A DNA stretch of 64,000 nt from Vitreimonas sp. (GTDB lineage Bacteria; Patescibacteriota; Microgenomatia; UBA1400; PJMF01): contig DASPLQ010000012.1 of assembly GCA_035627515.1 (NCBI GenBank), positions 327,269 to 391,268 of the forward strand. The letters run 5' to 3'. Below the pieces are notes generated by a model. It saw only the letters and a program-made list of their open reading frames with translations. It was not told the origin of the DNA and did not search any database. Made by a program: the position numbers and the translations under genes. Shown in pieces: positions 29,401 through 64,000 of the stretch (positions within the stretch are counted from its first letter, which is position 1; each line of letters begins with the position of its first letter).

Positions 29401-32400
29401 GGGAGCTTCAACTAATAACTTTACCTTCCGCCAAGGTGGCCAAAATGGGACTGAGTTAATGAGATTATTAGGCACAGGTAACTTAGGAGTGGGAACCACT
29501 GGACCAGATGCTCGTATCGATTCCCTCGCTACCTCTGGTGAACAACTCCGCTTAACGTACACTGATGGCTCTGCCTACACCGGATTCACTACCAATAGTG
29601 GTGGAGACTTAACCATCGTGCCATCTGGCGGCGATGTTAACATCACGGGTAACTTGAGCTTAACTGGCACCACTACCTTCAACTCACAAACCTACACTTG
29701 GCCAGGTTCACAAACTGCTAACTACGTCCTGCAAACCAATGGTACAGGCACCTTGAGTTGGGCTGATCCTACTCAATTTGGTCTGTGGCGACAATCTTTG
29801 GGTGCCATCTCACCGATCAATAACACCTTCGATTTACTAGTCGGTTCCAATGCTACAAGTAGTGCCAAGTTTGCAGTCTTAAATGTGAACTCAGGCACAC
29901 CAACCGCCTCAGTTTCAGCCGGAACCTCTGGAGCTGCTTACCTGACTGCGGCTGGTGCGTTACAAACCACCGCTCGCCAAACCTTAAGTCTAGGTGGCTC
30001 CACCACTGGCAACACGAATGTGCTCAATACTGCTGGCACTGCCTTCACTACCTTTGACGCTACTAACAGTCGTGTGGGCATTGGCACCGCAGCACCTGGG
30101 TTCAACCTCGAAATCGCTGATGCTACTGATCCACAAATGGTGGTGACTGATACTACCAATACCGTGAGAACTCGAGTTCAATCACAAAATACGGTCGGTG
30201 TTCTTGGTACTTCTTCCAATCACGCCTTGCGCATCCAAACTGGATCAACTAACGCCATTTCTATTGATACTAGCCAATTAGTAGGTATTGGCACCACTGC
30301 ACCAGATGCCAGACTTGATTCACTTTCTACCTCCGGTGAGCAGCTCCGCTTAACCTACACCGATGGTTCAGTTTATACGGGCTTTACCACCAACTCGAGT
30401 GGTGACTTAACAGTTGCTCCTTCTGGCAGTGATGCTAACATCACCGGTAACCTCGACGTCTCTGGTACCTTCGCCTCTGGCACTGCCGATGCCCTTACTA
30501 TCGACGCCTCTGGTAACTTAGTTACTACTGGTACCTTAACTGCTAACACCAACGAAACCATTAATGGTATCGATATCAACGCTGGCGCTGTCAGTGACAT
30601 CACTACCCTCTCTGCCTCGAGTACTATCACCTTCTCAAGTTTCACCACCAACGGTGGTGTGCTCTACACCAATGGCTCTGGCGTCTTGGCACAAACTGCT
30701 GTGGGTAGTTCGGGAGAGTGTTTGAAATCAGCTGGTGCTGGCGCTCCAACCTGGGGTAGCTGTACAGCTGGGGCAGGTTCCAGTAACTGGCGCTTAACCA
30801 ATGGTGCCTTCTCACCTATCAACGACACCGCTGACGTCTTGATCGGAAGTACGGCTACTTCGAGTGCTAAGTTTGCCTTCATCAACGTCAATTCTGGTAC
30901 ACCAACTGCCTCTATCTCCGCTGGCACTTCTGGTGCTACCTACATCGCCGCTTCTGGTTTGATCCAAACCACCGCTAACCAAAACTTAACCATCGGCGGT
31001 AACACCACTGGTAACATCACCTTGGCTCCGCTCAATGGCGCTGGCACAGTCAATGTCACCGGCAACGCCGACGTCTCTGGCACGTTCGCTTCTGGCACTG
31101 GCAACGCCTTCACCATCGATGCCACTGGGAACACTGTCACTTCTGGTACTGTCACTGCTGCTACTAACGAAACTATCAACGGAGTCGATATTAACAATGG
31201 CGCCATCAGTGACGTCACTACCCTCAGTGCCTCAAGTACCATCAACACGACAGGCGGTACCATCCAAACTAACTCTACGAGTCGCATCGATAACTCGGGT
31301 AACTTGACTAACATTGGCACCACTCAATTGAACGGTCAAACCTACACTTGGCCAGGTTCTATTACTGCTGGTGGCGTCTTACAAACCTCAGGTGGTGGCG
31401 CCTTGAGTTGGGCTGATCCAGCAGGCTTCGGTCAATGGCGCTATGGCAATGGTGCCATCTCCCCAATCAACAATACTTACGATCTCTTAGTTGGTTCCAA
31501 TGCTTCCAGCTCAGCCAAGTTTGCTGTCTTGAACGTCAACTCTGGCACACCTACAGCCTCAGTCTCAGCCGGTACAGCTGGCGGTGCCTATATCACTGCC
31601 GATGGTAAATTAGCCACTACTGCCAAACAAACCTTAACGCTCGGTGACACCAATACTGGCAATGTAGTCATCCCTAGCTCCAACTTAGGCATTGGTAACA
31701 CTCAACCTTTCGCTCAATTACACTTGACCGCTACTGGAGAAAGCGGCGTTGCCCGAGGCTTACAAGTTAATGCCAACGATTTAAATACTAATGCTACCAT
31801 TACCAAATATGGCAACAATGGTGGCCTTGATCTCCGCACAGCTTGGACTGGTAACAGTAATATTACTTCTGGCATTACTCTGGGTGAAGGCAATGCCTGG
31901 AGTCCTGACATTCGCTTCTACACCGCCTTCCAAGGTGCGACCCGCAGTGAGCGAATGAGAATTACTGATATTGGTAATATTGGTATCGGAACCACTACAC
32001 CTACTTCCTTGTTCCACGTTAACGGTGGTTACGCCAACAACGCTCTCGCCACCTTCAATCAACTTAACTCCGGTGATATCCTGACCGCTTCAGCATCTGG
32101 TGCGACTCGCATGCGCTTGACCAACAACGGCAACATGATCATTGGTCCTTCCACAGCGGCTATTAACTACAACATGATCTCTCAAAGTGGCACGGCTTCC
32201 TTTGCTAGCACCAACAACGACCTCTATATCGAGGATATCCTCGAGGTCGGCGGCAGTATCGTGTTGGGTGGCAACCAATTGATGGCTAATGCCCTCTGGC
32301 AAAATAATGGTAATGTTTACTCACCAATTGGTGCTTACGGCAGCGTGGCTGACCTGGCTATCGGTGGCACTGCGACCTCGAGTGCTAAGTTCCAAATCTT

Positions 32401-35218
32401 TGGTAACAGTGGTGTGGCCAGTTCCTCTGGAACACTCACCTTCCGTGGCACTACTGATCCTAAGATCGATATCTTAAACGGTGAAAACTTCGGCATTCGC
32501 TTCAGCCCCGGTGGTGACGCCGGCGTGAGTGAGAAGTTCACTATCTTAGCCAACGGCAACGTCGGTATTGGCGACACTAACCCTGCTTCCCGCTTGAGTA
32601 TTGGTGGCTCCACCTCTAGTATCACTAACACCTCTGGAGACATCACGATTGATGCCACCAGCAACACCATCAGTTTTGCCGGTGACTTGATCACCAACTT
32701 CTCAGCTGCTCAAGGCACCAATGGTTCGACTAGCGCACCGACCTTCTCGTTCACCTCTGATACTGATACCGGTATGTACATGCCGACGATTGGTGAGTTT
32801 GGCTTCGTGACTGCTGGTGGTGAGCGAATGAGAATTGATAGTGCTGGCAAAGTCGCGATTGGCCTGACCAGTCCTACTGGTTTATTCCACGTCTCGGGTA
32901 AAGTGACGGGTAAAGCCCTAGCTATCTTCAATGAAACTGGCAATCAAGACATTATCGTCGCCTCTGCCTCTGGCACTACTCGTTTCCGCGTCGCCAATGA
33001 CGGTCACGTCTACGCTCAACGCTTCGTCGATACCAGTAGTAATAGTTTCTATCTGGACCCAGCTGATGGCACCACCAGTTTAGCCATTGCCGGTGACATC
33101 ACGCTCGATTCGGGTGGCACGATTGAATCAACGGGCAACAACAATATTGACATCGATGCTGGCTCAGGCAACGTCTTGATCGGTGGCGGTACCGGTAAAC
33201 TCGATGCCGGTACCATCGACCCTCCATACTGGATTGAAGGTAAAGGCTACGCTACCTACGTGGCTAGTATGGTGGGCTTAAATGAAGAAATTGCTTCAAC
33301 TGTGACCTTGCAACCAAGTGGTACTCCAGGCTTATACAAGTATGTGATCGATTTCCCGAACTTAAATAAAGACACTCAAACTGACTTATGGTTGTTTGGT
33401 CGTATCATCGATATGGGTGACAACATGGAGAACTTAGTGGTCTTGCTCTCTCAACACGGTTCTGGCCAAGTCATGTACAAAAAAGATGCCGCTAAACAAC
33501 AATTAATCATCTACGGCGCCGCTCCGACTGAAGTATCATTCCGCTTGACCGCGCCTCGCTTCAACCACGAGCAGTTTGGCACTGTCCGCTCTCGCCAAGA
33601 TGGCCGCGGCTTCCAACCAGTTAATCCTAATTACCAGGCTACTGGCACCGGCAGTTCCGACACTGATCTCTTAGCTAGCTTGACACAAAACCCAACTGTT
33701 TCCTTCACTGACCTAGGAACCGTGGTCATCGGTGATGCTGGCACTACAGTCACCACTGCTGATAACACAGCCGTAACTCGAGTGGAAGCATTCTGGGGAG
33801 CAGTGATTGGTCGCTTACGAGCTGGCTTAGTGGACGCACAACAATTAGTAGCCAGCATGATCGTGATCTCACCAGAGGTGAAGACTGATGTGATCACCCC
33901 GATGAACAGTGGTGACTTAGAAATTAACTTGACAGCTCCAAATGGTATCGAATCTGGTGAACTAGCGATCGTCAATCACGCTGGCGAAAAAGCTATTACG
34001 CTCGATGGTGATGGTAATATCTCAGCTTTAGGTGACTTGATTGCTCAAGACGCTTCATTCTCAGGTGAAGTAGTCGCTGAAGGCATCACCGCCACCTCTG
34101 CTCGCTTAGATCAACTCGAGTCCAAACTGGCTGAACTAGAAAGTGTCCGCGCTCAAACTGCCGAGATCATCACCGCCACTATCTCTGGCACACTCTACGC
34201 TGATAATATCGATGGCTTTGATTCCAAAGTAGCTAACGCCTTACAGCAACCAAGCTTACTCGAGCAATTGATGGGTGACGATCCAGCTGAGGCCAGCTTA
34301 TCAGCCTCGATGGCTTCTCTCTTCAACGTCATCGATGAAGCCGGCTTCACCGCCAGCGGCTCGGGTAGTTTGAACCGCTCTCTCGAGGATCTGGCTTTGG
34401 CTACCGATGACTTGAGCTTGGGCGCCACCGCCGTCTTCGTCAACAAATACTTCGAGGTCAACGGCACTGGTTACATTTCTGAGTCATTAGGAGTGGGTGA
34501 AGAAATCTTGATTGGTGAAGGTATGCGCGTCGCTGATGGTTTCATCAACTACACCTCACCAACTAACCCTGCTGCCAGTGTCTTACACTTACAACCTTCT
34601 GGCCAAGGCTCAGTCTCGATCTTGGCTGGCGCTTTGACCATCAATCAAGGTGGTCAGGTCATCGTCACTGGCGACCTGACAGTGGCCGGTAACTTGAGAG
34701 TGGAAAACACCTTGTTAGCCAGCTTGATCCAACCTACTGACTTCGCTAACCCGTTACAAGTTAAGTTAGCTACCAGATCAGGTGAGGTCAATGGTGACGC
34801 CACTGAATCAGCTCAGGTGACTGAGTCCCGCTTCGAGATCGTCAACGAGCTGGGTGTCCCAGTCGCCACCATCTCTGGCCAAGGCCGAGCCGAGTTTGCA
34901 GGTGGCTTAGGCATTGGCGCTGAAGACTTATCCGCTGCTGCTGCCAGCACCACCAGTGGCGAAGTTGCTACCCAACGTACATCTGGTAAAGCTTTGATCC
35001 CAGCTGGCTCAACTGAGATCATGATCCGCGCCACTCAAGTCACCGCTGAGTCCTTGATCCAAGTTACTCCTCAAGGCTCCACCAACAACCAAGTCATGTA
35101 CGTCAAAGCTCAAGTGGCTGATGATATTTCTACCCCAGAAAATGAAGCTCACTTCGTGGTCGGCTTCGACGCACCGTTGGCCACCGATGCCAACTTCAAC
35201 TGGTGGATCGTGAATTAG
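20462..35218 (+). CDS. giant (4918 aa) membrane-anchored surface protein: N-terminal tyrosine-recombinase core-binding (Phage_int_SAM-like) domain, one TM helix, ~4500 aa of Gly/Thr/Ser/Asn-rich beta-repeat modules, C-terminal coiled coil
   Basis: Uninterrupted 14.7-kb ORF. N-terminal ~180 aa (KATVRNYRSDINQFFDFC ... SSIKRKVSSITQFGQWLHKAGY) resembles the XerD N-terminal SAM-like core-binding domain. TM helix WFLPYLTLATLILFFAGLAVFGY. Recurrent modules follow: IGTTGPDAKLDSLSTTGEQLRLTYTDG..., TYTWPGSQTANYVLQTNGSGTLSWADP, GIGT..P...LH[VI].GGYGANDA.TVNQT..GNI.SASASGTTR. C-terminal coiled coil SARLDQLESKLAELESVRAQTAEI. Confidence 0.85.
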   Translation: MSAPLTAPTSLPALWLSFVQKQAVSESDQHLLIGYVSKFASSLATPADWSVESLTEFLAKNNFSELSLTQRRTWLSEFVRSISSRQIGVTLYLFELALIKGNCSKATVRNYRSDINQFFDFCQTTEVSEALTKPKLQAFEQHQSLKGLQPSSIKRKVSSITQFGQWLHKAGYPIELVVENLTAAEVISTPVAEEKIEHEISSSQLETDKLAELSLREEVADLKAQVKRQARAWFLPYLTLATLILFFAGLAVFGYRQFFRDVPTPLAYPSSPVRADRVLSFQGRLTDTAQNPITTATNMTFKLFDSGPSIVSGTELWSSGTCSVTPDQDGIFNAGLGDDCGSEIPDDVFTENANVWLQVQVAAETLSPRQPIRTVAYAINSETVQGYPVTASGSATVNTLLTMDSSGNVILGETSPKLKSVSGTFTLEGQTIKLQTTSGGNGNIIIDADGTGGTFINDYLKAPGATLSATYAGGVPLTVLGGPSGMGNLANFQNNGGTNLLTVDASGNLSTIGGIGHSFGNVGGNLTLNSAGTIELLDATNVTGALSATGNINSSGGSLQTGGTSRIDNSGNLTNIGTTQLNGITYTWPGSQNSNYILQTNGSGTLTWADPAALAGASTFWLQNNGALYPKNSTVDFLLGGQATSSAKFAVLNLNSGTPTATLSGTTTGAALYMTGEGTLATTQNRSLLLNPTGGFVGIGTSNPAAKLDVVDTLRVTSLDGTNWSSINTTNAGNSRWSYEGSSTYLDLNQNGAITAGSRFIVGTAGGTGDTGDLAAGANGGSRIAWLRRVSTNRPTLDFYNLSNVLVNSISANTTDPTYFTGALFGIGTSTPTAFTHINGGYGANDALTVNQTLGGNILSASSSGTTRLILTNGGQLQASAGTSSAPGYSFLNASGLGFYLTGGNEVSLSPGGHANRQIRFGGVSGSNWAGTYFTNDNFATHAGIGRAQVSTTINDGLFIGDIGATATLRGLAMSYLALGTQAGNTDVYLQRDAAQTFGQRNSTNAQQFNIYNTYTSATNYERAEFNWIANSNVFTIQTGRGSLGGSTRDIALQPTSGKVGIGTIAPTALLHINGGYGANDALTVNQTLSGNIFSASASGTTRMVLTNSGNLGIGTTTPNQQLEIQGTTTPGGALRLSSADTTVFTDEHIGQIDFYSNDASLNGVGVGAFVKAIAEDNGTLYGLSFGTGQALAGATEKLRLTNDGNLGIMAQGDLRLYDTDSSNYLAFQAPSTVGSNLTYTFPGSVTNGYVLQTDGSGTLTWADPAVLAGATDYWASSLGTLYPKNSTLDFLLGGQATSSAKFAVLNLNSGTPTATLSGTTTGAALYMTGEGTLATTRNRSLLLNPTGGNVGIGTSNPSYKLEVNGQTAITPTTGTVLKLGANVDSSTATPVSIDMGGTYSNTAGQNPKIMLYKAGVLELGFGFSLNEFDYIAHSAGTHVFWSGTTRDARIYTDGVRVPSTSGYIFTSDTGLATPDTGIARSSAGVIKLTNGSSGDGSLYAGGSANNYFAGNVGIGTTGPDAKLDSLSTTGEQLRLTYTDGSAYTGFTTNSGGDLTIVPSGGDVNITGNLALTGTTTLNSQTYTWPGSQTANYVLQTNGSGTLSWADPTSFGLWRQSLGAISPINNTFDLLVGSNATSSAKFAVLNVNNGTPVASVSSGVSGTALSMSADGTLTTSSNRPLAINPTGGNVGIGTSTPGDKLTVQDGNLRLQRSDTTNTRLTNYWGGSTSYGMSIESNISSATAYSNSYGIRLGTIFSSLPTSGTYDQVRIIDSFAPTSGTAISNAFTVMPTINQTGGANGISRGIYINPTLTAAADFRGLEIANNSGYGIYQSGASATNYFNGTSGFGTTGPDAKIDSLSTTGEQLRLTYTDGSAYTGFTTSSGGDLTVAPSGSDTNITGNLDVSGTFASGTANALTIDASGNVVTTGTLTANTDETINGIDINAGAVSDITTLAASGQITFSTFTTNGGILYTNGSGVLAQTSVGSSGECLQSNGGGAPTWGSCNATAVNYWRLTNGAFSPVNDTADVLIGSTATSSAKFAFLNVNSGTPTASVSAGTTGATYITAAGSLQTTARQSLNLGGTTTGNTNVLNTAGTAIATFDATNSRLGLGTTAPASKLEVVGDDIRVSSEVDANDEQGAGIEFYNTLAHANAQKVVASITPSRMHNTFGGGALLFNTTNDGVGGTPTTRMIIGTSGNVGIGATSDSSINTRSKLNVFVGSGDGVRIINSSGSGVDWLLTPGVGGVDHDRFGLYNADSSTFIWNAKHTGDMGIGTTGQDARLDVLTTSGEQLRLTYTDGTVYTGFTTNSGGDLTIVPSGGDVNITGNLALTGTTTLNSQTYTWPGSQTANYVLQTNGSGTLSWTNPQNFGLWRQSLGALSPINDTMDLLVGSNASSSAKFAVLNVNSGTPVASISANSGNINTYLTGNGTLATTNRQSLTIGNSSTYNTTGNVLINSNGQGSVGIGTTTPSEELHVVGDILAGTSFKIGSTNTQIDKYGGWFRINTTGSYGLVIDNAAASLSYNSNLNSTGLAGLKVTHADTAAFANIGALNAVITNNAYISGRAGVGTTSPTAVLHVSGGYGANDAFTVNQTNSGNIFSASASGTTRLTLSNAGNLIFNQASTIQTSTGNLTLDSTGGTIELIDNTNITGNLDVSGTFAAGTADALTIDASGNVVTSGILTAATNETINGIDINAGAVSDITTLDASSTVTFSSFTTDGGVLYTNGSGVLAQTAVGSSGQCLQSNGGGAPTWGSCTGGGSFSNWRLTNGAFSPVNDTADVLIGSNATSSAKFAFMNVNSGTPTASISAGTTGATYITADGKLQTTARQNLSLGGTTTGNTQVLNTAGSAFATFDATNSRLGIGTAAPLAKLSVGPGVGEKLHLYDDGAGTIYGMGIQASLMQLYAPAGSRVGIGNGSSGSFTEALSVIDGKVGIGNTSPNAPLSFANAVGEKVVLFDGGSAATRIGSAIQTNDFQQYVGASTNNFTFRQGGQNGTELMRLLGTGNLGVGTTGPDARIDSLATSGEQLRLTYTDGSAYTGFTTNSGGDLTIVPSGGDVNITGNLSLTGTTTFNSQTYTWPGSQTANYVLQTNGTGTLSWADPTQFGLWRQSLGAISPINNTFDLLVGSNATSSAKFAVLNVNSGTPTASVSAGTSGAAYLTAAGALQTTARQTLSLGGSTTGNTNVLNTAGTAFTTFDATNSRVGIGTAAPGFNLEIADATDPQMVVTDTTNTVRTRVQSQNTVGVLGTSSNHALRIQTGSTNAISIDTSQLVGIGTTAPDARLDSLSTSGEQLRLTYTDGSVYTGFTTNSSGDLTVAPSGSDANITGNLDVSGTFASGTADALTIDASGNLVTTGTLTANTNETINGIDINAGAVSDITTLSASSTITFSSFTTNGGVLYTNGSGVLAQTAVGSSGECLKSAGAGAPTWGSCTAGAGSSNWRLTNGAFSPINDTADVLIGSTATSSAKFAFINVNSGTPTASISAGTSGATYIAASGLIQTTANQNLTIGGNTTGNITLAPLNGAGTVNVTGNADVSGTFASGTGNAFTIDATGNTVTSGTVTAATNETINGVDINNGAISDVTTLSASSTINTTGGTIQTNSTSRIDNSGNLTNIGTTQLNGQTYTWPGSITAGGVLQTSGGGALSWADPAGFGQWRYGNGAISPINNTYDLLVGSNASSSAKFAVLNVNSGTPTASVSAGTAGGAYITADGKLATTAKQTLTLGDTNTGNVVIPSSNLGIGNTQPFAQLHLTATGESGVARGLQVNANDLNTNATITKYGNNGGLDLRTAWTGNSNITSGITLGEGNAWSPDIRFYTAFQGATRSERMRITDIGNIGIGTTTPTSLFHVNGGYANNALATFNQLNSGDILTASASGATRMRLTNNGNMIIGPSTAAINYNMISQSGTASFASTNNDLYIEDILEVGGSIVLGGNQLMANALWQNNGNVYSPIGAYGSVADLAIGGTATSSAKFQIFGNSGVASSSGTLTFRGTTDPKIDILNGENFGIRFSPGGDAGVSEKFTILANGNVGIGDTNPASRLSIGGSTSSITNTSGDITIDATSNTISFAGDLITNFSAAQGTNGSTSAPTFSFTSDTDTGMYMPTIGEFGFVTAGGERMRIDSAGKVAIGLTSPTGLFHVSGKVTGKALAIFNETGNQDIIVASASGTTRFRVANDGHVYAQRFVDTSSNSFYLDPADGTTSLAIAGDITLDSGGTIESTGNNNIDIDAGSGNVLIGGGTGKLDAGTIDPPYWIEGKGYATYVASMVGLNEEIASTVTLQPSGTPGLYKYVIDFPNLNKDTQTDLWLFGRIIDMGDNMENLVVLLSQHGSGQVMYKKDAAKQQLIIYGAAPTEVSFRLTAPRFNHEQFGTVRSRQDGRGFQPVNPNYQATGTGSSDTDLLASLTQNPTVSFTDLGTVVIGDAGTTVTTADNTAVTRVEAFWGAVIGRLRAGLVDAQQLVASMIVISPEVKTDVITPMNSGDLEINLTAPNGIESGELAIVNHAGEKAITLDGDGNISALGDLIAQDASFSGEVVAEGITATSARLDQLESKLAELESVRAQTAEIITATISGTLYADNIDGFDSKVANALQQPSLLEQLMGDDPAEASLSASMASLFNVIDEAGFTASGSGSLNRSLEDLALATDDLSLGATAVFVNKYFEVNGTGYISESLGVGEEILIGEGMRVADGFINYTSPTNPAASVLHLQPSGQGSVSILAGALTINQGGQVIVTGDLTVAGNLRVENTLLASLIQPTDFANPLQVKLATRSGEVNGDATESAQVTESRFEIVNELGVPVATISGQGRAEFAGGLGIGAEDLSAAAASTTSGEVATQRTSGKALIPAGSTEIMIRATQVTAESLIQVTPQGSTNNQVMYVKAQVADDISTPENEAHFVVGFDAPLATDANFNWWIVN
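22215..24540 (+). repeat. pair of ~330-nt near-identical direct repeats inside giant gene 1 (22215-22570 and 24180-24540)
   Basis: Both encode YT[WF]PGS...YVLQT[ND]GSGTLTWADPA[AV]LAGA...LYPKNST.DFLLGGQATSSAKFAVLNLNSGTPTATLSGTTTGAALYMTGEGTLATT.NRSLLLNPTGG with long identical nucleotide runs. Confidence 0.75.
24950..31500 (+). repeat. array of ~1.0-1.3 kb near-identical tandem coding repeats inside giant gene 1
   Basis: Five copies of ggtgaacaacttcgcttaac[c/g]ta[ct]actgatgg at ~25050, 26045, 27335, 29540 and 30335. Three copies of tacacttggccaggttcacaaactgctaactacgtc at ~25211, 27487 and 29693. Two module types alternate: A with TYTWPGS...LSWADP, B with TGNLDVSGTFASGTA.ALTIDASGN...ILYTNGSGVLAQT...GGGAPTWGSC. 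Confidence 0.8.
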
Positions 35219-44300: not shown

Positions 44301-46442
44301 ATTACGAGCACTACTCAATCTAAAGCAGATATCCAAATTGGTCGTTTATACACCGGAGCAAATTACTTTGCCGGCGAAATGGATGAAATTCGCATCTCCA
44401 ACATCGCCCGCACTGCGGATGAGATTCGCCAAGCTTATGAAGTTGGTAAACGCTCTTACCCTATTACCATTGATTTCACTGCCGATCTTGATTCAGGAAA
44501 TTTGATCACTAATTCGGGCGATACTTCATTTACAGTTGATGGCACTGCTTGGGGTATGGGTAGCAAGGGCAACAACCTGTACGTAGGTGAGAAAGTCATC
44601 ATCAAAGAAAATTACGATGGTACTGAGTACATTGCTCAGGGTATAGTAACCACTGTCAATGCTTCTACGGGTGCAGTTAATGTGAGTAGCTGGGATGCCG
44701 GTTCTACTTTCCCTTCCGGCGGCTTCACCACCAATGCCATTGTTTTCAAATGGCAACGAGAGTATTGGGACATTACAGGAGCGTTTGATTCGCATCTCAA
44801 TGCCACTACCGATCTCAGTTTACGCGTCACTAATGGTCTGGAAGGCCGCACCATTTGGATCGATGATCTCAAATCAAACGCCGGTTATATGAGCACTGCT
44901 ACTGGTACTGATGTTACCTCTTCACCAAATCGTTACATTCAATACCGAGCCATTATTTCCAGTAGCGATACAAATGTCTCTCCTGCTATGCGGACTGTAG
45001 CTATGACATATGAGGAAAATGTCGCTCCCAACACACCCACATTAGATTCACCTGCTAATGCGGCCACTGGCGTCACCACCAGTCCAACTCTACAAACCAC
45101 CGCTACCGATACTGAAAGTGATTACTTGCGCTATAAGATCGAGCTTTGTACTGATTTAGCTATGACCACTGGCTGCCAAACCTTTGACCAAACCAGCTCC
45201 CAAACGGGATGGAGTGGTCAGAATGCCCAAACCAGTACCGCTTATAATTCTGGGTCTCAAGCTAGTTACACCCTACAAACACCACTCACCTCCAACACTA
45301 CCTATTACTGGCGCTCCTACGCCATCGATCCCGGCGGCCGCTATGCGTGGAGCAGCACCCAAGGTACGCCGTACTCCTTTACCACCAATAAAGCTCCCAA
45401 TGTGCCCACGCTCGACGCGCCTACCGACACTGCCACTAATCAACTGCTACTGCCGCTCTTGCACACCACTGCCACCGATGACAACAGTGATTACCTACGC
45501 TATAAAATCGAACTCTGTACCAATGTCGGTATGACCACGAGCTGCCAAACTTTTGATCAAACCAGTTCCCAAACGGGTTGGAGCGGTCAAAATGCCCAAA
45601 CCAGTACTGCCTATACTTCGGGCACTCAGGCAACGTACACCATTCAGTCTGCCCTCAGTCCCAACACCACCTACTATTGGCGCTCTTACGCCATTGATCC
45701 AGGCGGGTCTAATAGTTGGGGAGCTACACAAGGTACCCCCTACTCCTTTACCACTTCGGCAGTACCTACCGCTCCTAATCTACTAGAAGCTGAAGCCACC
45801 ACTAATCCCACTGGCGTCACCGACATTACACCAGAATTCACGGCTATTTATAACGATCCCAATAGTGGTGACTTAGCCAATAAATATCAAATTCAAGTCG
45901 CCACCGCGGCGGATTTTAGTGGCACGTTGATGTGGGACTCAGGGTCAGTATCAATGTCTAATCTCACTCAAGGCACTCGCTCAACCGCTGTCTCGTATGC
46001 AGGTACAGCCTTAACCTACAACGGCGCCACGTATTACTGGCGAATCCGTTTCACCGATGTGGCTGGCAATGTAGGAGCCTGGAGCAACGAAACTGCCACC
46101 TTTACCATGTACAACTTATTGACTCCGTCTTCCTGTACTCTGGCGAAAACTATCCCCAACACGCAAATCACCGTCAGCTGGAATGATCCTAATAGTGGTG
46201 AAGATGGCTATGAGGTGCAAAAGAGTCTCAATGGGGGGGCTTTTGGTGCTTTGACCACTACTGCTGCTAACGCTACTTCCTATCCAGATAACACTACGAG
46301 CGATGGTAATACCTACCAATACCGCGTCCGCGCCACCATGAACAGTCAAACCTCGAACTGGTGCACAACTGCTACATTGTCACTTGATACTGACTACTTA
46401 AGATTGGAAGGCGTCAAGCTCGATGGTTTACAACTCAATTAA
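35301..46442 (+). CDS. giant (3713 aa) membrane-anchored multidomain surface protein: at least 7 LamG/ConA-like lectin modules, 5 beta-propeller-blade-like repeats, glycine-rich beta-helix-like block, 4 C-terminal FN3-like domains
   Basis: Uninterrupted 11.1-kb ORF starting 83 nt after giant gene 1. Basic N-terminal tail and TM (LVSVGTGLALAVLVLSGLYY). LamG-type C-terminal motifs recur (GRMDEIRLSNSARTQIEIKEA, GSLDEIRISGVARSADEI, MDGAVDSVRVYTRVLSASELLTNY, GVIDSTRVYSRALTPAEIIENY, GSMDAVRMYSRVLTPEEILSNY, GKMDEISLSSRAKTKEEI, GEMDEIRISNIARTADEIRQAYE). ~55-aa repeats with ...DGG.YKMWY... occur five times between 40100 and 41150. Poly-Gly/Ala/Ser block at 41950-42480. FN3-like repeats at 45000-46400. 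Confidence 0.85.
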   Translation: MLQSLLAKLAQKIAPHRTAWDRAVRLVQHTTRPARHEARRRLSYAWASTYNRVHHRWHIFSQTPRGKKVKKLLEKLPFVTPQKRAFIHQHPQLVSVGTGLALAVLVLSGLYYRWWYSPSPRFKPNFFNPGTFSGQNPTSPLVANIAKTKTGAQVQILNGNSGIEFITPIIKAEMKIAQDKAIFKDKNQAQEVRYQLIDKGIKEEIILHTDPQTNTFTSGLQTKDATPALTADQQIIFLNDQNEYVFHLEKPWAKDANGDITYAVSYKLVPKEKPGLFNLNKQTEQNTALSPLGQLNASTVDLMGGVSQLASPTSAAITPDGAYDLVMEIDPRWMSAPERVYPITIDPTVIYEVSSEYASGEYNRAYDAGYNRTPDSNNNNRELSADTNTIGLWHLNEIGAATHIDSSGNGNTGTSSNATVVDAQINKGLSFNGSSTIVSVADSTSLDSITNNMTIEMWINPGSTQNAFSTIMSKHSTGTGVFSLEQNNTSTNVYNMWFSGNTCTDILTLTANKWQHIAVVKNGTSVNSYIDGHFHRSCTLASSTITPNNDLLYFGRWSSGGGRFFTGRMDEIRLSNSARTQIEIKEAAQKGPSIESFYQELPADEHTLGLWHMNEGTDNTCSGGQDLCDVSGNSLHATFNGNAAFTTNGRLGTYGMNLDGNADYAEFPDSSLLDLGTSDFTLETWAYANSFTTNNTYMELGSWPSAMIFRQDSASVLGFYTMSGSYTFSYSPPTKQWYHVALVRNKGVLTLYADGKFVGNQLSDATITVAGVNRFGSSVHTTAQYFNGSLDEIRISGVARSADEIKLNAQRRPYAIYTSPVIDLTQNLDDGSKGELLMDNTSLVAQWNFNETSGTNVNSLAGSCGNNCNGTLYNAADTSGQDKVVGSGWTNTNKKWGQSSLMLDGSNDYVSMGVNSNLNFTTQNFTMEGWFKFDSLASTQVLMGNGTGNQNGYFLYWESSSGTLSFATAQSGTTQVSFSTASPITTGQWYHLAVSRNGSTGKIYVNGTDVTSFSGNHINPTSSTYPFAIGVSSFNLITFPMDGAVDSVRVYTRVLSASELLTNYQANANRNIVDWGGNGESLNSTTGLVAQWDFNETSGTTASVTAGSCGVSCNATLTSFANTSGQDVVANSGWTATNKRWGTGAVMLDGSDDYLTDASPGTLPTGATARTIEMWVKPSNLSTGGALFHYGNGATAGQEFILQFTNLSGDLYLFTDGTNAANNIAVQPSEAPAIGEWNHVVFTLDGANNWVYYLNGVRRLSGTFSVAINTVTPTVMNIGDRTDVANTNFPGVIDSTRVYSRALTPAEIIENYKVSELAWLERGVATGDGETPANSSGLTAEWYFNQTSGTTANAGGSCGATCNGTLTNFASTGSQDAAAGTGWTAANRRWGAGAIAFDGTDDYVSVPDSSVYETSTGSIELWFKTSTSQGPRYIFSKSQTVNQAFNFYQDTSNRLAFWIRNTAGTSSITITSQNAIHDGEWHHAVGIWGSSGMRLYLDGKLQSSNTYTGWWDGTTAALQFGREATTPGFYWKGSMDAVRMYSRVLTPEEILSNYNAGNIELQTRTSSDGSTWGAWSPVSSETAIESFDTNTSVATPSAQTNLTWYKYDNTLPPQTSDSDSTNGRIFLGSAGRGDASGTLVPRVIYDGGVYKMWYAALSGSGWMGYHATSPDGLTWTKYDNVIPTTSNTTGTGGRLPLGVGGTGDDGGVYPGPVIKDGNEYKMWYQGDDGANSRGYMATSTDGINWNKVNNGIPGTSNTTGSNGQLPLGASNGDITHTVPGSVIKEGSTLRMWYSGYNAAWRIFYAESTDGGYTWTKQGNTAAGTCDTVCTEGAGRLGLGTSGKGDDNGVYAPMVIKDGSTYKMWYAGHDGSTGWRIFYATSPDGLIWTKYDNNLPGRSDSMGTNGRIGHGNTGKSDNGTELYGISVVDTGTQLKAWYHTYYSDGVSVNTHYINHAYMDKANSPTITKADSSAIKMEGSNALKLNTATPQIDSSTVGYWSFDETGGTGAYLRDQSYTAPATPDVGDGADGAITVSANRNINTDNMISGRSCADGGDAVNYSSTVNTATGSASITLSSTPSTGCLAVGDEVLIINQQLIGSPIDYDQVGQWETKTIQSISTNTLNFATGLSNEYRGATQRIMVQRVPNYTNVTINSTFTLTANAWNGVKGGVLFFRANGTVSNSGTIDMNGKGYRGAPRRQVGVDYTYGWMGESEAVGYQAIAQAASIASGGGGGNGQGGGAGGSYGTLGVDGVAAGCTVGAPFTTGRIKGDAALTKLHFGGSGGAAGSHNGGGRDGAIGGASGGILGIAATTLTNSGTIRANGSAGENGYFAAGANQPMGGGGGGAGGSVLIQTTTLTTGTITASGGAGGSASATGAGCTPSGAGGAGGQGRIKVDTTSALGGTTTHPLTSSSPDHATPTGTTVVDGVVGKARSFNGTSDYLEIPDSGQIRVGEPHFTFEGWINPSSYSGCGTDGSGATCMIANKENVYEFAMASNGNVNWAINNTSPGWAWISTGANLPLNTWTHIAIVYDGQFVYTYKNGQQVHMNAASGVINHQTARAALRIGARNAPLAANSFFPGKMDEISLSSRAKTKEEIDMSYRLGANQTVTKTISTTDLSGKTQLPFYVAADRPGTYLQPTLGENSYVNYDPDSTTIAHWKFEENLNSWGDYFFGTTLDSSKWIEIDPGGKLAQSNGMILSAGSTGANWDAGLISKQKFTRDQTTVLYARFITGSTVASPNHMMIGFAQDQTASGAFGTISHALYFNAGTFYMFQDGANVGGPLGSGYVANTLYEISVQLNSNGTATYYVKGGVYTNWTALGTDTAKTNSPLRVQISNYQHTGYFSEIAVGVPDRLVTDSSGYDNHGQVYNAKTFPGKLGSGRNFNGMDSFIWVPPSNIRYNFFQSDPFTIEAWVRPTAVSSTDRYIFNKQQNVTNEFVFALNLTSGNKFNLALSKQNISGQNITGTSTPVAGQWYHVVGVSNGTTASLYVNGQLEASSAISITSTTQSKADIQIGRLYTGANYFAGEMDEIRISNIARTADEIRQAYEVGKRSYPITIDFTADLDSGNLITNSGDTSFTVDGTAWGMGSKGNNLYVGEKVIIKENYDGTEYIAQGIVTTVNASTGAVNVSSWDAGSTFPSGGFTTNAIVFKWQREYWDITGAFDSHLNATTDLSLRVTNGLEGRTIWIDDLKSNAGYMSTATGTDVTSSPNRYIQYRAIISSSDTNVSPAMRTVAMTYEENVAPNTPTLDSPANAATGVTTSPTLQTTATDTESDYLRYKIELCTDLAMTTGCQTFDQTSSQTGWSGQNAQTSTAYNSGSQASYTLQTPLTSNTTYYWRSYAIDPGGRYAWSSTQGTPYSFTTNKAPNVPTLDAPTDTATNQLLLPLLHTTATDDNSDYLRYKIELCTNVGMTTSCQTFDQTSSQTGWSGQNAQTSTAYTSGTQATYTIQSALSPNTTYYWRSYAIDPGGSNSWGATQGTPYSFTTSAVPTAPNLLEAEATTNPTGVTDITPEFTAIYNDPNSGDLANKYQIQVATAADFSGTLMWDSGSVSMSNLTQGTRSTAVSYAGTALTYNGATYYWRIRFTDVAGNVGAWSNETATFTMYNLLTPSSCTLAKTIPNTQITVSWNDPNSGEDGYEVQKSLNGGAFGALTTTAANATSYPDNTTSDGNTYQYRVRATMNSQTSNWCTTATLSLDTDYLRLEGVKLDGLQLN
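45010..45760 (+). repeat. tandem duplicated ~375-nt FN3-like coding repeat near the 3' end of giant gene 2
   Basis: Two adjacent copies (NVAPNTPTLDSPAN...DYLRYKIELCTDLAMTTGCQTFDQTSSQTGWSGQNAQTSTAYNSGSQASYTLQ...TTYYWRSYAIDPGG and KAPNVPTLDAPTD...DYLRYKIELCTNVGMTTSCQTFDQTSSQTGWSGQNAQTSTAYTSGTQATYTIQ...TTYYWRSYAIDPGG) with long identical nucleotide runs, e.g. cagtgattac[ct]t[gc]cgctata[ak]a[ag]atcga[ga]ct[tc]tgtac. Confidence 0.7.
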
Positions 46443-60691: not shown

Positions 60692-62896
60692 ATGTCCAGT
60701 CCCCATGTGGTTCTCGATATCAGAACTGCCCGCAATTCCGAAACAACTGCTGAAGCACTGACTCAATTTTTTGCGACTCTCCCCTATTTATATGATCAAC
60801 CCTGGTACACGGCTCTAGGACAAGATGAACACTTGTCGCTAGAAATTGTGGTCCTCAACCAAACTATTTATTTTTTAGCGTATGTCCCGGTCCGAGTTCA
60901 AAATTACTTCACCTCTTTGATTCAGGCTACTTACCCCGAGTCTTTAATTACTCCCCTCGATTTTGATCCTCTAGTCAGTTACCTAGTAGAAGGGGCACCA
61001 CTCACGCCTGAAGCTACTCCCACACATCTGGAAATTGGTCATTTAACTCTCAGTGAACACAATCATTATCCTCTGAAAACGATTCACCAGTTTAAAGACA
61101 CTGATTCTTTGTCTCACGTCTTGTCCCTGTTATCTAAGACTGACCCCCAGGATATGATCGGCATCCAAATTGTCCTTCGAGATAGTGGTGAACGCTGGAA
61201 AAATGGGGCACCTCTTTCTCTGTCTAGCCTCGCCCAAGCTACTCTGGCTACAGCGCCAGCTGAAGGCAACACAGCCGAAAAAAGTTCTGGTACCTCTGAT
61301 CAAAAACTTGCCAGTACTGCTTGGCAAACTAGCATCAAACTCTTAGTCCGCTCCAGTAACTATGATCAAGCTTACCTACTACTCGAGACGATTGCTTCGG
61401 CTTACCAATCAACTTCGCATAGTGAGGGGAATACCTTAGTCCTTAAACAACCTTGGTTTTTTAAAAACTGGTTCCTTAACCGAGTCAAAAACCGGACAAT
61501 TGGGTGGGGACCGCGACAACCGCTGACGCTTGAGGAAATGGCTGCTATTTACCATTTCCCTAACAAAAAATTGACCCCCATTCACAACATCGCTTGGGGG
61601 AAACTGCTGCTCGGCGAACCTCCGGAAAACTTGCCGGTGGTCACGAAAGATATGGCAGAAAATCTAAAACGAGATATTAACCCTTTTGCTCGAGTCCTTT
61701 ATAAAAACTCCCATGTGGTCTATGGCCTCAAGCGCGCTGATCGTCGCCGCCACATGTATGTCATCGGAAAAACCGGCACTGGTAAGTCTACCCTTTTGGC
61801 TAACATGGCAATTAATGATCTGAAGAATGATGAGGGGTTGTGTGTCATCGACCCCCATGGTGATTTAGTGGAAACATTACTCAATTACATCCCTTCGCGC
61901 CGGATCAATGATGTGGTGTACTTCGATCCTTCAGACCCTGACCGAACAGTCAAAATTAACCTCTTTGAAGGGCAAAATGTGGTACATCGAGAATTAATTG
62001 CTTCCGGCATTGTCTCGGTCTTCCAGAAGTTGTACTCATACTCATGGGGGCCACGACTTGAGTACATTTTGCGTAATGCGCTGCTGACACTGCTCAAAAC
62101 AGAGAATGCCCGCATGTCGGATATCGTAGATTTATTAGTGGATGATAAATTCCGTGCCAAAACTATCGAAAATCTCGACGACCCCATCTTGCAAACCTTC
62201 TGGACTAAAGAGTTTGATCAAATGCCACCTCGGCTGCGGAGCGAGGCCATCGCTCCGATTCTAAATAAAGTGGGACAATTTGTCTCCTCTCCCCTAGTAC
62301 GCAACGTAGTGAATGCTCACAAAAGTTCTTTTAGCATCGAAGATATTATGGATCAAGGTAAGATCTTATTAGTTAATCTTTCTCAAGGTCGCTTGGGTGA
62401 GGATAATGCTACCCTGCTTGGGGCGATGCTGATCACCAAAATTCAGTTAGCCGCCATGAGCCGCGTCAATGTTGCCGAGGAAGAACGCAAAGATTTTTAC
62501 CTGTATGTGGACGAGTTCCAAAACTTCGCTACACAATCTTTCAACAAAATTCTCTCTGAAGCTCGTAAATACCGTCTTAATTTAACACTGGCTAATCAAT
62601 ACATTGCCCAAATTCCTGAAGATGTGCAGAAAGCTATCTTTGGTAACTGCGGCAGTATTATTAGTTTTGTAATGGGCGCTGATGACGCAGCGGTATTCGA
62701 AAAAGAGTATGGCGAAAAATACAGCAAAGAAGACCTCGTCACGCTCAGTCGCTATCAAATCATCAATAAAATCACTGTCGATGACATCGTCTCACTCCCC
62801 TTCCCTGCTTTGACGTTACCAATTGCTAAGAGTAGCAACCACAATCGCGACAAAGTGGTCAAAGTCAGTCGAGAGCGGTGGGCGACGAAGAAGTAA
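60692..62896 (+). CDS. VirD4/TraG/TrwB-like (TrwB_AAD_bind-type) P-loop ATPase
   Basis: Walker A YVIGKTGTGKSTLL, then CVIDPHGDL. Walker B-like LYVDEFQNF. All-alpha insertion between the motifs. ~730 aa, typical for coupling-protein-like ATPases. Confidence 0.55.
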   Translation: MSSPHVVLDIRTARNSETTAEALTQFFATLPYLYDQPWYTALGQDEHLSLEIVVLNQTIYFLAYVPVRVQNYFTSLIQATYPESLITPLDFDPLVSYLVEGAPLTPEATPTHLEIGHLTLSEHNHYPLKTIHQFKDTDSLSHVLSLLSKTDPQDMIGIQIVLRDSGERWKNGAPLSLSSLAQATLATAPAEGNTAEKSSGTSDQKLASTAWQTSIKLLVRSSNYDQAYLLLETIASAYQSTSHSEGNTLVLKQPWFFKNWFLNRVKNRTIGWGPRQPLTLEEMAAIYHFPNKKLTPIHNIAWGKLLLGEPPENLPVVTKDMAENLKRDINPFARVLYKNSHVVYGLKRADRRRHMYVIGKTGTGKSTLLANMAINDLKNDEGLCVIDPHGDLVETLLNYIPSRRINDVVYFDPSDPDRTVKINLFEGQNVVHRELIASGIVSVFQKLYSYSWGPRLEYILRNALLTLLKTENARMSDIVDLLVDDKFRAKTIENLDDPILQTFWTKEFDQMPPRLRSEAIAPILNKVGQFVSSPLVRNVVNAHKSSFSIEDIMDQGKILLVNLSQGRLGEDNATLLGAMLITKIQLAAMSRVNVAEEERKDFYLYVDEFQNFATQSFNKILSEARKYRLNLTLANQYIAQIPEDVQKAIFGNCGSIISFVMGADDAAVFEKEYGEKYSKEDLVTLSRYQIINKITVDDIVSLPFPALTLPIAKSSNHNRDKVVKVSRERWATKK

Positions 62897-62904
62897 AAAA
62901 TCAC

Positions 62905-62928
62905 AAATTCCAAATTACAAATTTCAAA
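62905..62928. repeat. left arm of 24-bp perfect inverted repeat flanking the four-helix-bundle gene
   Basis: aaattccaaattacaaatttcaaa at 62905-62928. Its exact reverse complement is at 63456-63479. Similarity extends to ~30 bp with 2 mismatches. Starts 9 nt after the virD4-like stop. Confidence 0.7.
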
Positions 62929-62962
62929 TCCCAAACTCAAAACTAGAAATCTTATGCACACA

Positions 62963-63331
62963 TTACTTGTGACTACTTCTTTGTGCCTGCCGCACTCTAG
63001 ACATACTAGCTAGAATAAGTAAAATTTCGTGCGTTTCCTTCCAAAGTTCTCTTAAGTCACTAGACTTTTCAGGATTAGTTTGGGCTAATAGATTTAGCCA
63101 ATACTTTGTTTCCCGAGCTTCTTTTCGGCACACATAAATTTTATGAACAAAGTCTTTTCGACTTTCTGATTCACTAGCTTCACAATAATTAGCTCCAATC
63201 GATGTGCTAGATCTAAGTAACTGTGAAATAATAGCCCGGTTAAGCAGGGTTATATTAATAGTCTTAATAAGCTCAATAATACTAATTGAAAAGTTTCTTG
63301 TTCGTAATTCTAGTGATAGGTAATGAGTCAC
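62963..63331 (-). CDS. four-helix-bundle protein (TIGR02436-like, the family often encoded in 23S rRNA intervening sequences)
   Basis: ...TSIGANYCEASESESRKDFVHKIYVCRKEARETKYWLNLL... is the hallmark motif of this family. 122 aa. Confidence 0.7.
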   Translation of the reverse strand: MTHYLSLELRTRNFSISIIELIKTINITLLNRAIISQLLRSSTSIGANYCEASESESRKDFVHKIYVCRKEARETKYWLNLLAQTNPEKSSDLRELWKETHEILLILASMSRVRQAQRSSHK

Positions 63332-63455
63332 ATTTTAATTTTGCAACTAAAACCTTTACTTTAGCTTTACTTAGGTCTTTTGAGTGTGTCTGGTGAAAGT
63401 TAAAATTGTGGCCTTTGTGATTTGAAACTCTGATAAGCCAGCTGGTAAATTGGAT

Positions 63456-63479
63456 TTTGAAATTTGTAATTTGGAATTT
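63456..63479. repeat. right arm of the 24-bp inverted repeat
   Basis: tttgaaatttgtaatttggaattt at 63456-63479. Ends 4 nt before the radA stop codon (63484-63486). Confidence 0.7.
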
Positions 63480-63483
63480 AGAC

Positions 63484-64000
63484 TCAAATCAACCCCAGTT
63501 CCTTCAACACTTCCCTCACTCGCCCATGAGTTTTTCGGGAAATGATTTTGGTAAAGCCGAGGCGCTGGGCTTCTTTGACTCGCTGCTCGAGGTAACTAAC
63601 CGAACGGATCTCCCCGAGTAAACCAACTTCGCCGATAAATACCGTTTTATCCGACAGCGGTTTATTTTTAAGTGAGCTGGCTACAGCTACCGCCAGTCCC
63701 AAATCGACAGCTGGTTCCCGAATCGTGAAGCCACCTGCAGCAGAGAGAAAAATGTCAGTTGTGCCCAGAGGTAAACCACAATGTTTTTGCAAGACAGCGG
63801 CTAACACTTGAATCCGGTTGAGTTCTATCCCCCGCCCCACCCGTCGTGGCATAGCCAGTTGAGAGCTGACAACTAAGGCTTGAACCTCAGCTAATAAAGG
63901 CCGAGTGCCTTCCATCACACACACCGTGGAGGAACCTGGCACGGGTTTGTCAGTATGTTCCAAAAATAATTCACTGGGATTAGCGACCTCCTCTAAGCCA
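63484..64000 (-). CDS. radA: DNA repair protein RadA/Sms, C-terminal part (gene start lies beyond the window end)
   Basis: ...DKPVPGSSTVCVMEGTRPLLAEVQALVVSS...PRRVGRGIELNRIQVLAAVLQKH...LPLGTTDIFLSAAGGFTIREPAVDLGLAVAVASS is the RadA ATPase-to-Lon-like-domain junction and Lon-like C-terminal domain. The reading frame stays open through position 64000. Confidence 0.7.
   Translation of the reverse strand, partial: GLEEVANPSELFLEHTDKPVPGSSTVCVMEGTRPLLAEVQALVVSSQLAMPRRVGRGIELNRIQVLAAVLQKHCGLPLGTTDIFLSAAGGFTIREPAVDLGLAVAVASSLKNKPLSDKTVFIGEVGLLGEIRSVSYLEQRVKEAQRLGFTKIISRKTHGRVREVLKELGLI

Follow-up and report, generated by a model that had tools for sequence, protein, structure and literature searches.

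A four-helix-bundle gene between inverted heptamer arrays: a likely mobile relative of 23S rRNA intervening sequences located outside rRNA

How does a small gene come to lie between two convergent genes, bracketed by an inverted repeat and differing in base composition from both of its neighbors? This question is raised by a 64,000-nucleotide (nt) stretch of contig DASPLQ010000012.1 (assembly GCA_035627515.1, labelled Vitreimonas sp.), referred to below as the window. Between the stop codons of a gene for a VirD4-like coupling protein and of radA, the window holds a block of 587 nt (62897-63483, minus strand), which we call the cassette. It carries a gene for a four-helix-bundle protein belonging to the S23p/intervening sequence (IVS)-protein family. 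Members of this family are very common in genomes and a structure has been available since 2006; to our knowledge, no function has been assigned to them. We conclude that the region is probably one copy of a discrete, horizontally mobile, IVS-like cassette, in which an S23p/Avd-type gene sits in the loop between inverted heptamer arrays. This degree of confidence refers to the core of the reading, namely that the cassette is inserted, typical of its family, IVS-like, and mobile. It is best described as a free-standing relative of the open reading frame (ORF)-bearing IVSs of 23S rRNA, i.e., as a promoter-less, stem-enclosed mobile cassette.

An insertion between two intact genes

The cassette ORF is convergent with the VirD4-like gene (60692-62896, plus strand; profile matches to DUF8128 and TrwB_AAD_bind) and lies downstream of radA on the same strand (63484-64000, minus strand; the window includes the C-terminal part). 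The gene order M23 peptidase, Rho, sortase, VirD4-like (plus strand), RadA (minus strand), and S1 is kept in four relatives, and the cassette is missing at the junction in all four of them. In the closest syntenic relative, L082, the VirD4-like stop codon is followed by CCT and then directly by the RadA stop codon. Both neighboring proteins can be aligned to their last residue: the VirD4-like protein ends with RERWATKK in the window and with RERWATKKK in L082, and RadA ends with KELGLI and KELGLL, respectively. Because L082 has a spacer of just 3 nt and both neighbors align to their ends, the cassette is an insertion. The 587-nt block, which has a GC content of 33.2% compared to 45–50% for the flanking genes, is foreign in composition and was cleanly inserted into a spacer only a few nt long; the C-termini of both convergent host genes are intact and neither gene was damaged. 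An earlier interpretation of the DNA made from its letters alone (the sequence-only reading) had proposed an inverted-repeat-bounded insertion cassette and had suggested looking for relatives in which the virD4-like gene and radA are adjacent; L082 provides such an empty site.

The three other relatives (L083–L085) carry unrelated small genes without heptamers at this junction. The VirD4-like/RadA convergent junction is a variable spot (L082 6256-6260, L083 6231-6761, L084 6203-6757, and L085 6190-6441), which holds 3 nt in one relative, a gene with a Clp_N domain in another, and unrelated ORFs of 184 and 83 amino acids (aa) in two.

The repeat finder places the two arms of the inverted repeat at 62905-62934 and 63450-63479, 30 nt each, 93% complementary and 515 nt apart, in line with the previously described perfect 24-bp repeats that extend to about 30 bp. 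The perfect 24-nt core, AAATTCCAAATTACAAATTTCAAA (62905-62928 in the left arm), has two exact occurrences in the window, one per strand, and none elsewhere even when 3 mismatches are allowed. In 100 shuffles, the chance expectation for such a 24-mer pair was 0, and the arm pair is the strongest inverted repeat of the entire window. It is extremely improbable that the cassette gene is a long-standing resident of this site whose palindrome is fortuitous. The uniqueness of the 24-mer within the window would agree with this explanation, but no such pair is expected by chance, the site is empty in relatives, and the same bracketing is found in most of 80 homologous loci described below. According to the sequence-only reading, an insert at this position in all relatives would have pointed to such a resident gene, whereas four out of four relatives lack it. 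The relatives without the insert together with the family-wide complementarity of the flanks refute the fortuitous palindrome.

Analysis of the arms revealed a feature that the sequence-only reading had not noticed: they consist of tandem heptamers of the type AAATYNC. Tandem Repeats Finder (TRF) reports a period of 7 in both arms (62904-62935 and 63450-63479). On the left side, eight units follow one another in perfect register on the plus strand at 62898-62953 (AAATCAC, AAATTCC, AAATTAC, AAATTTC, AAATCCC, AAACTCA, AAACTAG, and AAATCTT). Relative to the ORF, this is the 3′-side array (minus strand), which was found both by TRF and by a detector anchored on the trinucleotide AAT. It begins 1 nt past the VirD4-like stop codon and finishes 9 nt short of the ORF stop codon; five of its units have an AAT core, and the AAT-anchor detector locates these at 62899-62933. 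The right arm, forming the 5′ arm in the sense transcript, reads AAATTCC, AAATTAC, AAATTTC, and AAAATCC and ends 4 nt before the RadA stop codon. Between the right arm and the start codon lies a spacer of 118 nt (63332-63449, minus strand), which is atypically long compared to the 0–40 nt found at other loci. Within this spacer are the remnant of a heptamer array (63409-63427), which is complementary to portions of the left array, and the palindrome CCAGCTGG (63438-63445). The perfect 24-nt mirror of the window copy belongs to the strong end of the family range. In the predicted fold of the sense RNA, both the minimum free energy (MFE) and the centroid structure close on the arm stem, with an MFE of −142 kcal/mol and a z-score of −3.4, which bears out the earlier suggestion of a stem-enclosed gene.

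The junctions of the cassette read TAA-A/AAATCAC on the left and GGAATTT/AGAC-TCA on the right. A target-site duplication just outside the repeats, which the sequence-only reading had recommended to look for, was not convincingly found at either junction. The sole string common to both is AAATCA; its right copy is offset by 6 nt and belongs to the radA stop region. The 64-kb window contains no second copy of an arm or of the cassette ORF, and neither rRNA nor any Rfam family was detected anywhere in it. Genes for a transposase or an integrase are missing among the genes within 10 kb on either side of the cassette.

The enclosed gene and its protein

The cassette gene (62963-63331, minus strand) starts with GTG and encodes a protein of 122 aa. 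ORF and profile searches agree with the earlier statement that one four-helix-bundle gene takes up everything between the stop codons of the virD4-like gene and radA, and the coordinates and sequences given for it are correct according to the window sequence, the ORF calls, and the repeat finder. The protein matches TIGR02436, the type assigned before, with 84 bits (cut-off 24) and PF05635, the S23p/IVS-protein family with its Avd-like fold, with 63.4 bits (cut-off 33.8). Its nearest homologue is 58% identical. The conserved family motif GxxRxxxSxxxNxxE (PMC3936711) is present as R-SST-S-IGA-N-YC-E (within QLLRSSTSIGANYCEA), the leading G being replaced by Q throughout the subfamily.

An AlphaFold2 model of the protein (pLDDT 92) consists of four helices. 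The best Foldseek matches to this model are BT_0352 (2rld; TM 0.74–0.83) and Xcc0516 (2gsc; TM 0.78–0.85), and a PDB sequence search with the cassette protein retrieved 2rld only. The next fold matches are to Avd, a protein of diversity-generating retroelements (DGRs), represented by 4dwl and 8ube/8ub7 with TM 0.6–0.76, although identity to Avd in the structural alignment is only about 15–17%. The crystal entries 2rld, 2gsc, and 4dwl contain chains up to E, and Xcc0516 and Avd have been described as homopentameric rings (PMC4990558; bioRxiv 10.1101/2023.10.23.563531). Judging from these homologues, the cassette protein may form a homopentameric ring as well.

The resemblance to Avd raises the possibility that the gene is the Avd of a DGR or part of a DGR remnant, and Patescibacteria are rich in DGRs. 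Both proteins have the four-helix-bundle fold of a pentameric-ring family, and Avd binds structured RNA with five protomers (4DWL; ribonucleoprotein [RNP] 8UB7/8UBE). On the other hand, the genes called in the 10 kb to each side include no reverse transcriptase, no pair resembling template and variable repeats was found near the cassette or in the 64-kb window, and the locus has no match in PHROGs or PADLOC. Moreover, 2rld and 2gsc, which are S23p proteins from outside DGRs, resemble the cassette protein far more than Avd does in both sequence and structure, and we know of no Avd genes bracketed by heptamer arrays. A DGR origin of the locus is thus highly unlikely, and we rejected this identity because of the missing reverse transcriptase and the missing template/variable repeat pair.

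The GTG start codon (63331) is overlapped by an out-of-frame ATG-TGA (AAAATGTGACTCAT; region 63316-63345), and no Shine-Dalgarno-like sequence is evident in front of the ORF. Deleting 2 nt at the start of the cassette gene would recreate the AATGACT (M-T) start that is typical of the family. The window copy may have suffered a small indel at this position.

Architecture and mobility of the gene family

The family set comprises the 80 best loci from a pattern search, with one genome per species; the relatives are 45–58% identical. Most of these loci are from Patescibacteria, and some are from metagenome-assembled genomes (MAGs) labelled Planctomycetota, Verrucomicrobiota, Desulfobacteraceae, and others. 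None of the 80 is located in rRNA. Using a detector that recognizes the AAT trinucleotide recurring every 7 nt and was calibrated on shuffled sequences, we found a phased array directly upstream of the gene in 62 loci and an inverted array directly downstream in 57; 52 of the 80 have both. As a second measure we scored the best ungapped complementary match between the two 200-nt flanks of each ORF. The mean score was 17.2 for the two flanks of the same gene and 9.7 for mismatched flank pairs, and a score of at least 14 was reached by 61% of the family ORFs compared to 4% of 295 other ORFs from the same loci (p = 6e-28). Such bracketing characterizes the subfamily as a whole, which the sequence-only reading had missed.

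The family unit has the logo A(.97) A(.96) T(.86) T(.58) W N N, and arrays of five units form a sharp peak in the distribution of unit numbers (37 of 77 downstream and 24 of 77 upstream), whereas random segments have about one. The start codon is often located inside the last unit (as in AATGACnAATGAC, which encodes M-T-N-D), which accounts for the frequent MTN and MPN N-termini of the family. The genes for the proteins most closely related to that of the window (L206, L208, and L209) are also heptamer-armed, and the L206 cassette sits between convergent genes like the window copy. Six of the 6-kb loci (L010, L011, L029, L039, L059, and L070) contain two family genes 1–2.5 kb apart. Some genomes therefore hold many cassettes at high local density, whereas the window has one in 64 kb.

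All-against-all comparison of the DNA shows that similarity typically extends from about 60–70 nt upstream to 45–100 nt downstream of the ORF match and then stops; for copies in unrelated genomes, the limit is the arms' outer edge. The best pair consists of L028 and L066, which belong to different lineages and whose cassettes are 83.5% identical over 431 nt. Their similarity starts inside the 5′ array and ends just past the 3′ array, and the flanking kilobases are without tblastx similarity. For the 11 pairs with cassette-limited similarity, no flank long enough to be compared showed any tblastx similarity. In three pairs (L051/L074, L045/L079, and L028/L046), the cassette occupies orthologous positions in related genomes. 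With respect to the neighboring genes, cassettes are strongly oriented: the upstream neighbor is on the same strand in 66 of 76 cases and the downstream neighbor in 64 of 74 (p about 1e-10), i.e., 87% are co-oriented. The gaps to the neighbors are about 51 nt upstream and about 62 nt downstream, so that the arms fill the intergenic space. Close pairs of the family ORF have dN/dS values of 0.05–0.15, and the protein is therefore maintained by purifying selection.

These values also show that the protein is useful to something, and they could be explained by a domesticated host gene whose arrays serve as operators or in translational control and as a bidirectional transcript barrier. According to this view, the insertion is ancient and the gene is not, or no longer, mobile. 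The three pairs at orthologous positions, the start codon embedded in the array in many copies, and the common occurrence of solo heptamer arrays upstream of ordinary genes are in agreement with it. However, the nearest relative of the window has an empty site and the others have different fillers there, the GC content of the cassette is foreign, and copies with 83% identity are found at unrelated sites in different lineages with their similarity ending at the arms. Together with the patchy distribution across phyla, this makes a domesticated gene distinctly improbable.

Opposed arrays are also found without an ORF between them. Such hairpins of 90–160 nt are located at L008 1236-1377 and 4668-4745, L017 1003-1110, L038 42-202, and L045 975-1065, and further ORF-less opposed pairs are present in L124–L126 and L148. 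In L008, the unit series AATGACAAATTTCCAATGACAAATG appears twice, 3.4 kb apart, and one copy has a GC-rich palindrome in its loop. At L037 1540-1923, an ORF of 127 aa, which by eye we take to resemble the GxxExxY/PD-(D/E)XK family, is bracketed by an inverted repeat of short tandem units (CGCGGAGATCGCGGAGATCGCC). Based on this case, other small gene families may travel in repeat-armed cassettes as well.

Could the cassette be a non-autonomous transposon acting at the DNA level, similar to miniature inverted-repeat transposable elements (MITEs), as the sequence-only reading had considered? In this case, the arrays would be terminal inverted repeats for a transposase acting in trans and the gene would be passenger cargo or an accessory factor. 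In favor of this, the arms do behave like terminal inverted repeats and delimit the similarity between genomes, ORF-less opposed arrays occur in the same genomes (L008, L017, L038, and L045), and a missing strand-specific wobble bias of the arms (see below) fits symmetry at the DNA level. MITEs, as well as hairpins of the repetitive extragenic palindrome (REP) and bacterial interspersed mosaic element (BIME) type, are likewise small, AT-rich, intergenic, and bounded by inverted repeats. In contrast to MITEs, however, the cassette carries a conserved gene, and its arms are tandem heptamers of variable sequence instead of a conserved terminal repeat. Arm sequences vary widely between copies with only the 7-nt period and the AAT core being kept, which is unlike the repeats of a transposon family. 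For the cassette we found neither a convincing target-site duplication nor a family of many identical copies, and within 10 kb on either side we found no cognate transposase. The ORF lacks a close paralogue, its nearest homologue being the 58% identical one, and occurs once in the window. A passive MITE would also not be expected to be so strongly oriented with respect to host genes. Hence, of the MITE-like proposal, the terminal inverted repeats stand, whereas target-site duplication, lack of coding capacity, and a second copy in the window do not, and we consider this explanation unlikely.

Several observations weigh against the reading of the cassette as a mobile, IVS-like unit. The cassette itself encodes no transposase, integrase, or reverse transcriptase, and the junctions without a convincing target-site duplication and the single copy in the 64-kb window count here as well. 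The insertion cannot be dated, since the nearest host relative is distant: the nearest VirD4-like proteins on record are 64–66% identical, with 66% for this relative. Expression of the window copy is uncertain due to its 118-nt spacer, its GTG start, and the lack of an evident Shine-Dalgarno sequence. Among the arm mismatches, 39 are G:U-compatible in the sense and 47 in the antisense orientation (p = 0.45). This absence of a sense-strand wobble bias neither supports nor excludes selection on a sense-RNA stem, and symmetry at the DNA level or generated by copying is equally possible. When the order of units was compared to a unit-permutation null, the mirror order scored 11.8 versus 10.3, a modest excess (p = 3e-8), and only 3 of 54 loci were individually significant. 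Much of the arm complementarity thus derives from shared unit types, and in many copies the arms are drawn from a similar pool of units and are not exact mirror images. The survey covers one subfamily of PF05635.

A search that starts from the repeat adds a further point of this kind. We sampled 80 metagenomic loci (L086–L165) with the pattern (AAATYNC)3AAA among the matches listed. None of these adjoins a gene of the subfamily (positive control: 80 of 80), only 7 of the 80 are paired with an inverted array (the loop measures 13–100 nt in six cases), and the genes downstream of the arrays are unrelated housekeeping genes. The association is therefore one-way: inverted arrays come with the gene family, whereas an array is no sign of the gene. 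Solo arrays of the AAATYNC type are widespread, including in genomes of 55–66% GC, and are often positioned just upstream of unrelated housekeeping genes; some have more than 10 units.

Finally, we made some observations on the window and its host. The window is part of a metagenomic contig of 1.41 Mb whose gene content is of the Patescibacteria type. A protein identical to the VirD4-like protein (P0121; 60692-62896) is labelled "Vitreimonas sp." (Alphaproteobacteria) in one public source; since all close homologues, the synteny, and the contig are Patescibacteria-like, this label probably belongs to a mislabelled MAG. The radA gene of the source (L001 8529-9848, mostly past the window end) encodes 439 aa without a zinc-ribbon match, whereas the RadA orthologues in the four relatives have 489–510 aa with an N-terminal Zn_ribbon_LapB domain. 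A start called at another position or a truncated N-terminus could explain the short form. Elsewhere in the window, 22100-32700 and also 45093-45754 contain many diverged direct-repeat families with 60–83% identity and spacings of about 1.0–2.3 kb. They are domain repeats and point to a coding region of very large size with internal repetition, probably for a giant surface protein.

Possible mechanism, known relatives and meaning

A scan for sigma-70-like promoters in the cassette found none on the ORF strand. The cassette would thus be without a promoter of its own and would be transcribed by read-through, in the window from radA. The orientation bias, the arms abutting the neighboring genes, and the lack of a promoter match make such read-through expression rather likely.

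In a read-through transcript, the arms would pair and form a stem of about 30–35 bp, which RNase III could cut. Cleavage would release the ORF-bearing loop and insulate the host transcripts. This proposal is based on the predicted closing stem and on the homologous IVS of Coxiella; we regard it as plausible, with doubt slightly prevailing. The Coxiella 23S IVS contains an S23p ORF, terminal inverted repeats, and tandem heptamers, and RNase III cuts at the first heptamer; excision by RNase III has been demonstrated for rRNA IVSs (PMC4990558).

A pentameric ring might in addition recognize arrays of five units with one protomer per heptamer, and could in this way autoregulate translation and/or mark the ends of the element. 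The idea of autoregulation comes from the usual position of the start codon in the last unit. Recognition of the arrays by the ring is a tentative proposal derived from the fact that arrays most often have five units, from the five-fold symmetry seen in homologues, and from the precedent of RNA binding by Avd. Within the DGR RNP, each of the five Avd protomers touches the same RNA stem-loop, and flipped-out bases are held by the same residues from different protomers (bioRxiv 10.1101/2023.10.23.563531).

How does the cassette relate to systems that are already known? ORF-bearing IVSs occur in the 23S rRNA of Coxiella burnetii, Leptospira, Xanthomonas, and Brucella, and genes of the S23p family were described in insertions of 16S and 23S rRNA in the Candidate Phyla Radiation (PMC11270868). 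These IVSs share with the cassette an ORF of the same protein family (S23p/PF05635) inside a long stem of terminal inverted repeats and a size of about 0.4–0.6 kb (PMC4990558; PMC11270868). The stem of the Coxiella IVS is cut by RNase III at its base, where it too has tandem heptamers (GACAGAT; PMC4990558). In contrast, the window cassette is located between protein-coding genes, and its 80 nearest homologues are outside rRNA as well. Furthermore, the Coxiella ORF is decaying whereas the subfamily of the window is under purifying selection. In the literature within our scope, which left out most subscription journals, we came across no paper that presents inverted heptamer arrays as typical of the family; the Coxiella IVS heptamers come nearest. 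This comparison suggests that the free-standing, heptamer-armed IVS-type cassette is new, whereas the S23p gene with its stem in rRNA IVSs and the heptamers of Coxiella were known.

Integron cassettes are also promoter-less single-gene units, co-oriented, transcribed by the host, and bounded by imperfect inverted repeats. However, integrons have a single 3′ attC site and an adjacent integrase/attI platform, whereas the window cassette has arrays at both ends, heptamer cassettes are scattered singly, and there is no integrase within 10 kb. With regard to the repeats, the TAACTGA heptanucleotides of Beggiatoaceae are intergenic and often found directly upstream of start codons without a Shine-Dalgarno sequence (PMC4679880). 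Such bacterial heptanucleotide repeats were described as direct arrays, whereas the cassettes of the family pair two inverted arrays around one gene family. The window unit may also resemble the short tandemly repeated repetitive (STRR) sequences of cyanobacteria.

A wider set of ideas can be built on the cassette, which we consider speculative and, taken jointly, on the improbable side. S23p-type pentameric rings might be register readers of five heptamers, as TRAP reads triplet repeats, and heptamer-armed cassettes might constitute an abundant and previously unrecognized class of mobile elements across bacterial phyla. The IVSs of rRNA would then be copies that landed in rRNA, and the Avd of DGRs a recruited offshoot. 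Mobilization could proceed via a protein-bound RNA released by RNase III or via a hairpin DNA intermediate, with an enzyme provided in trans, and ORF-less heptamer hairpins and some solo arrays would be footprints of cassettes.

For the biology of the family, the locus and its approximately 80 relatives suggest that gene and stem are one portable unit that lands mostly outside rRNA. The arms follow a strict repeat grammar: the period is 7 nt, the core is AAT, and an arm has about five units, a count that matches the five-fold symmetry of the protein. One hypothesis that follows is that the ring binds the five repeats. Such a portable unit would also help to explain some of the bacterial heptanucleotide repeats that have lacked an explanation, and the cassettes may be an evolutionary source of the Avd subunit of DGRs. 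Four-helix-bundle genes have been found wedged inside cas operons (PMC3936711). For annotation, genes for a "four helix bundle protein" inside operons, including cas and restriction-modification loci, would accordingly be read as inserted cassettes and not as parts of these systems.

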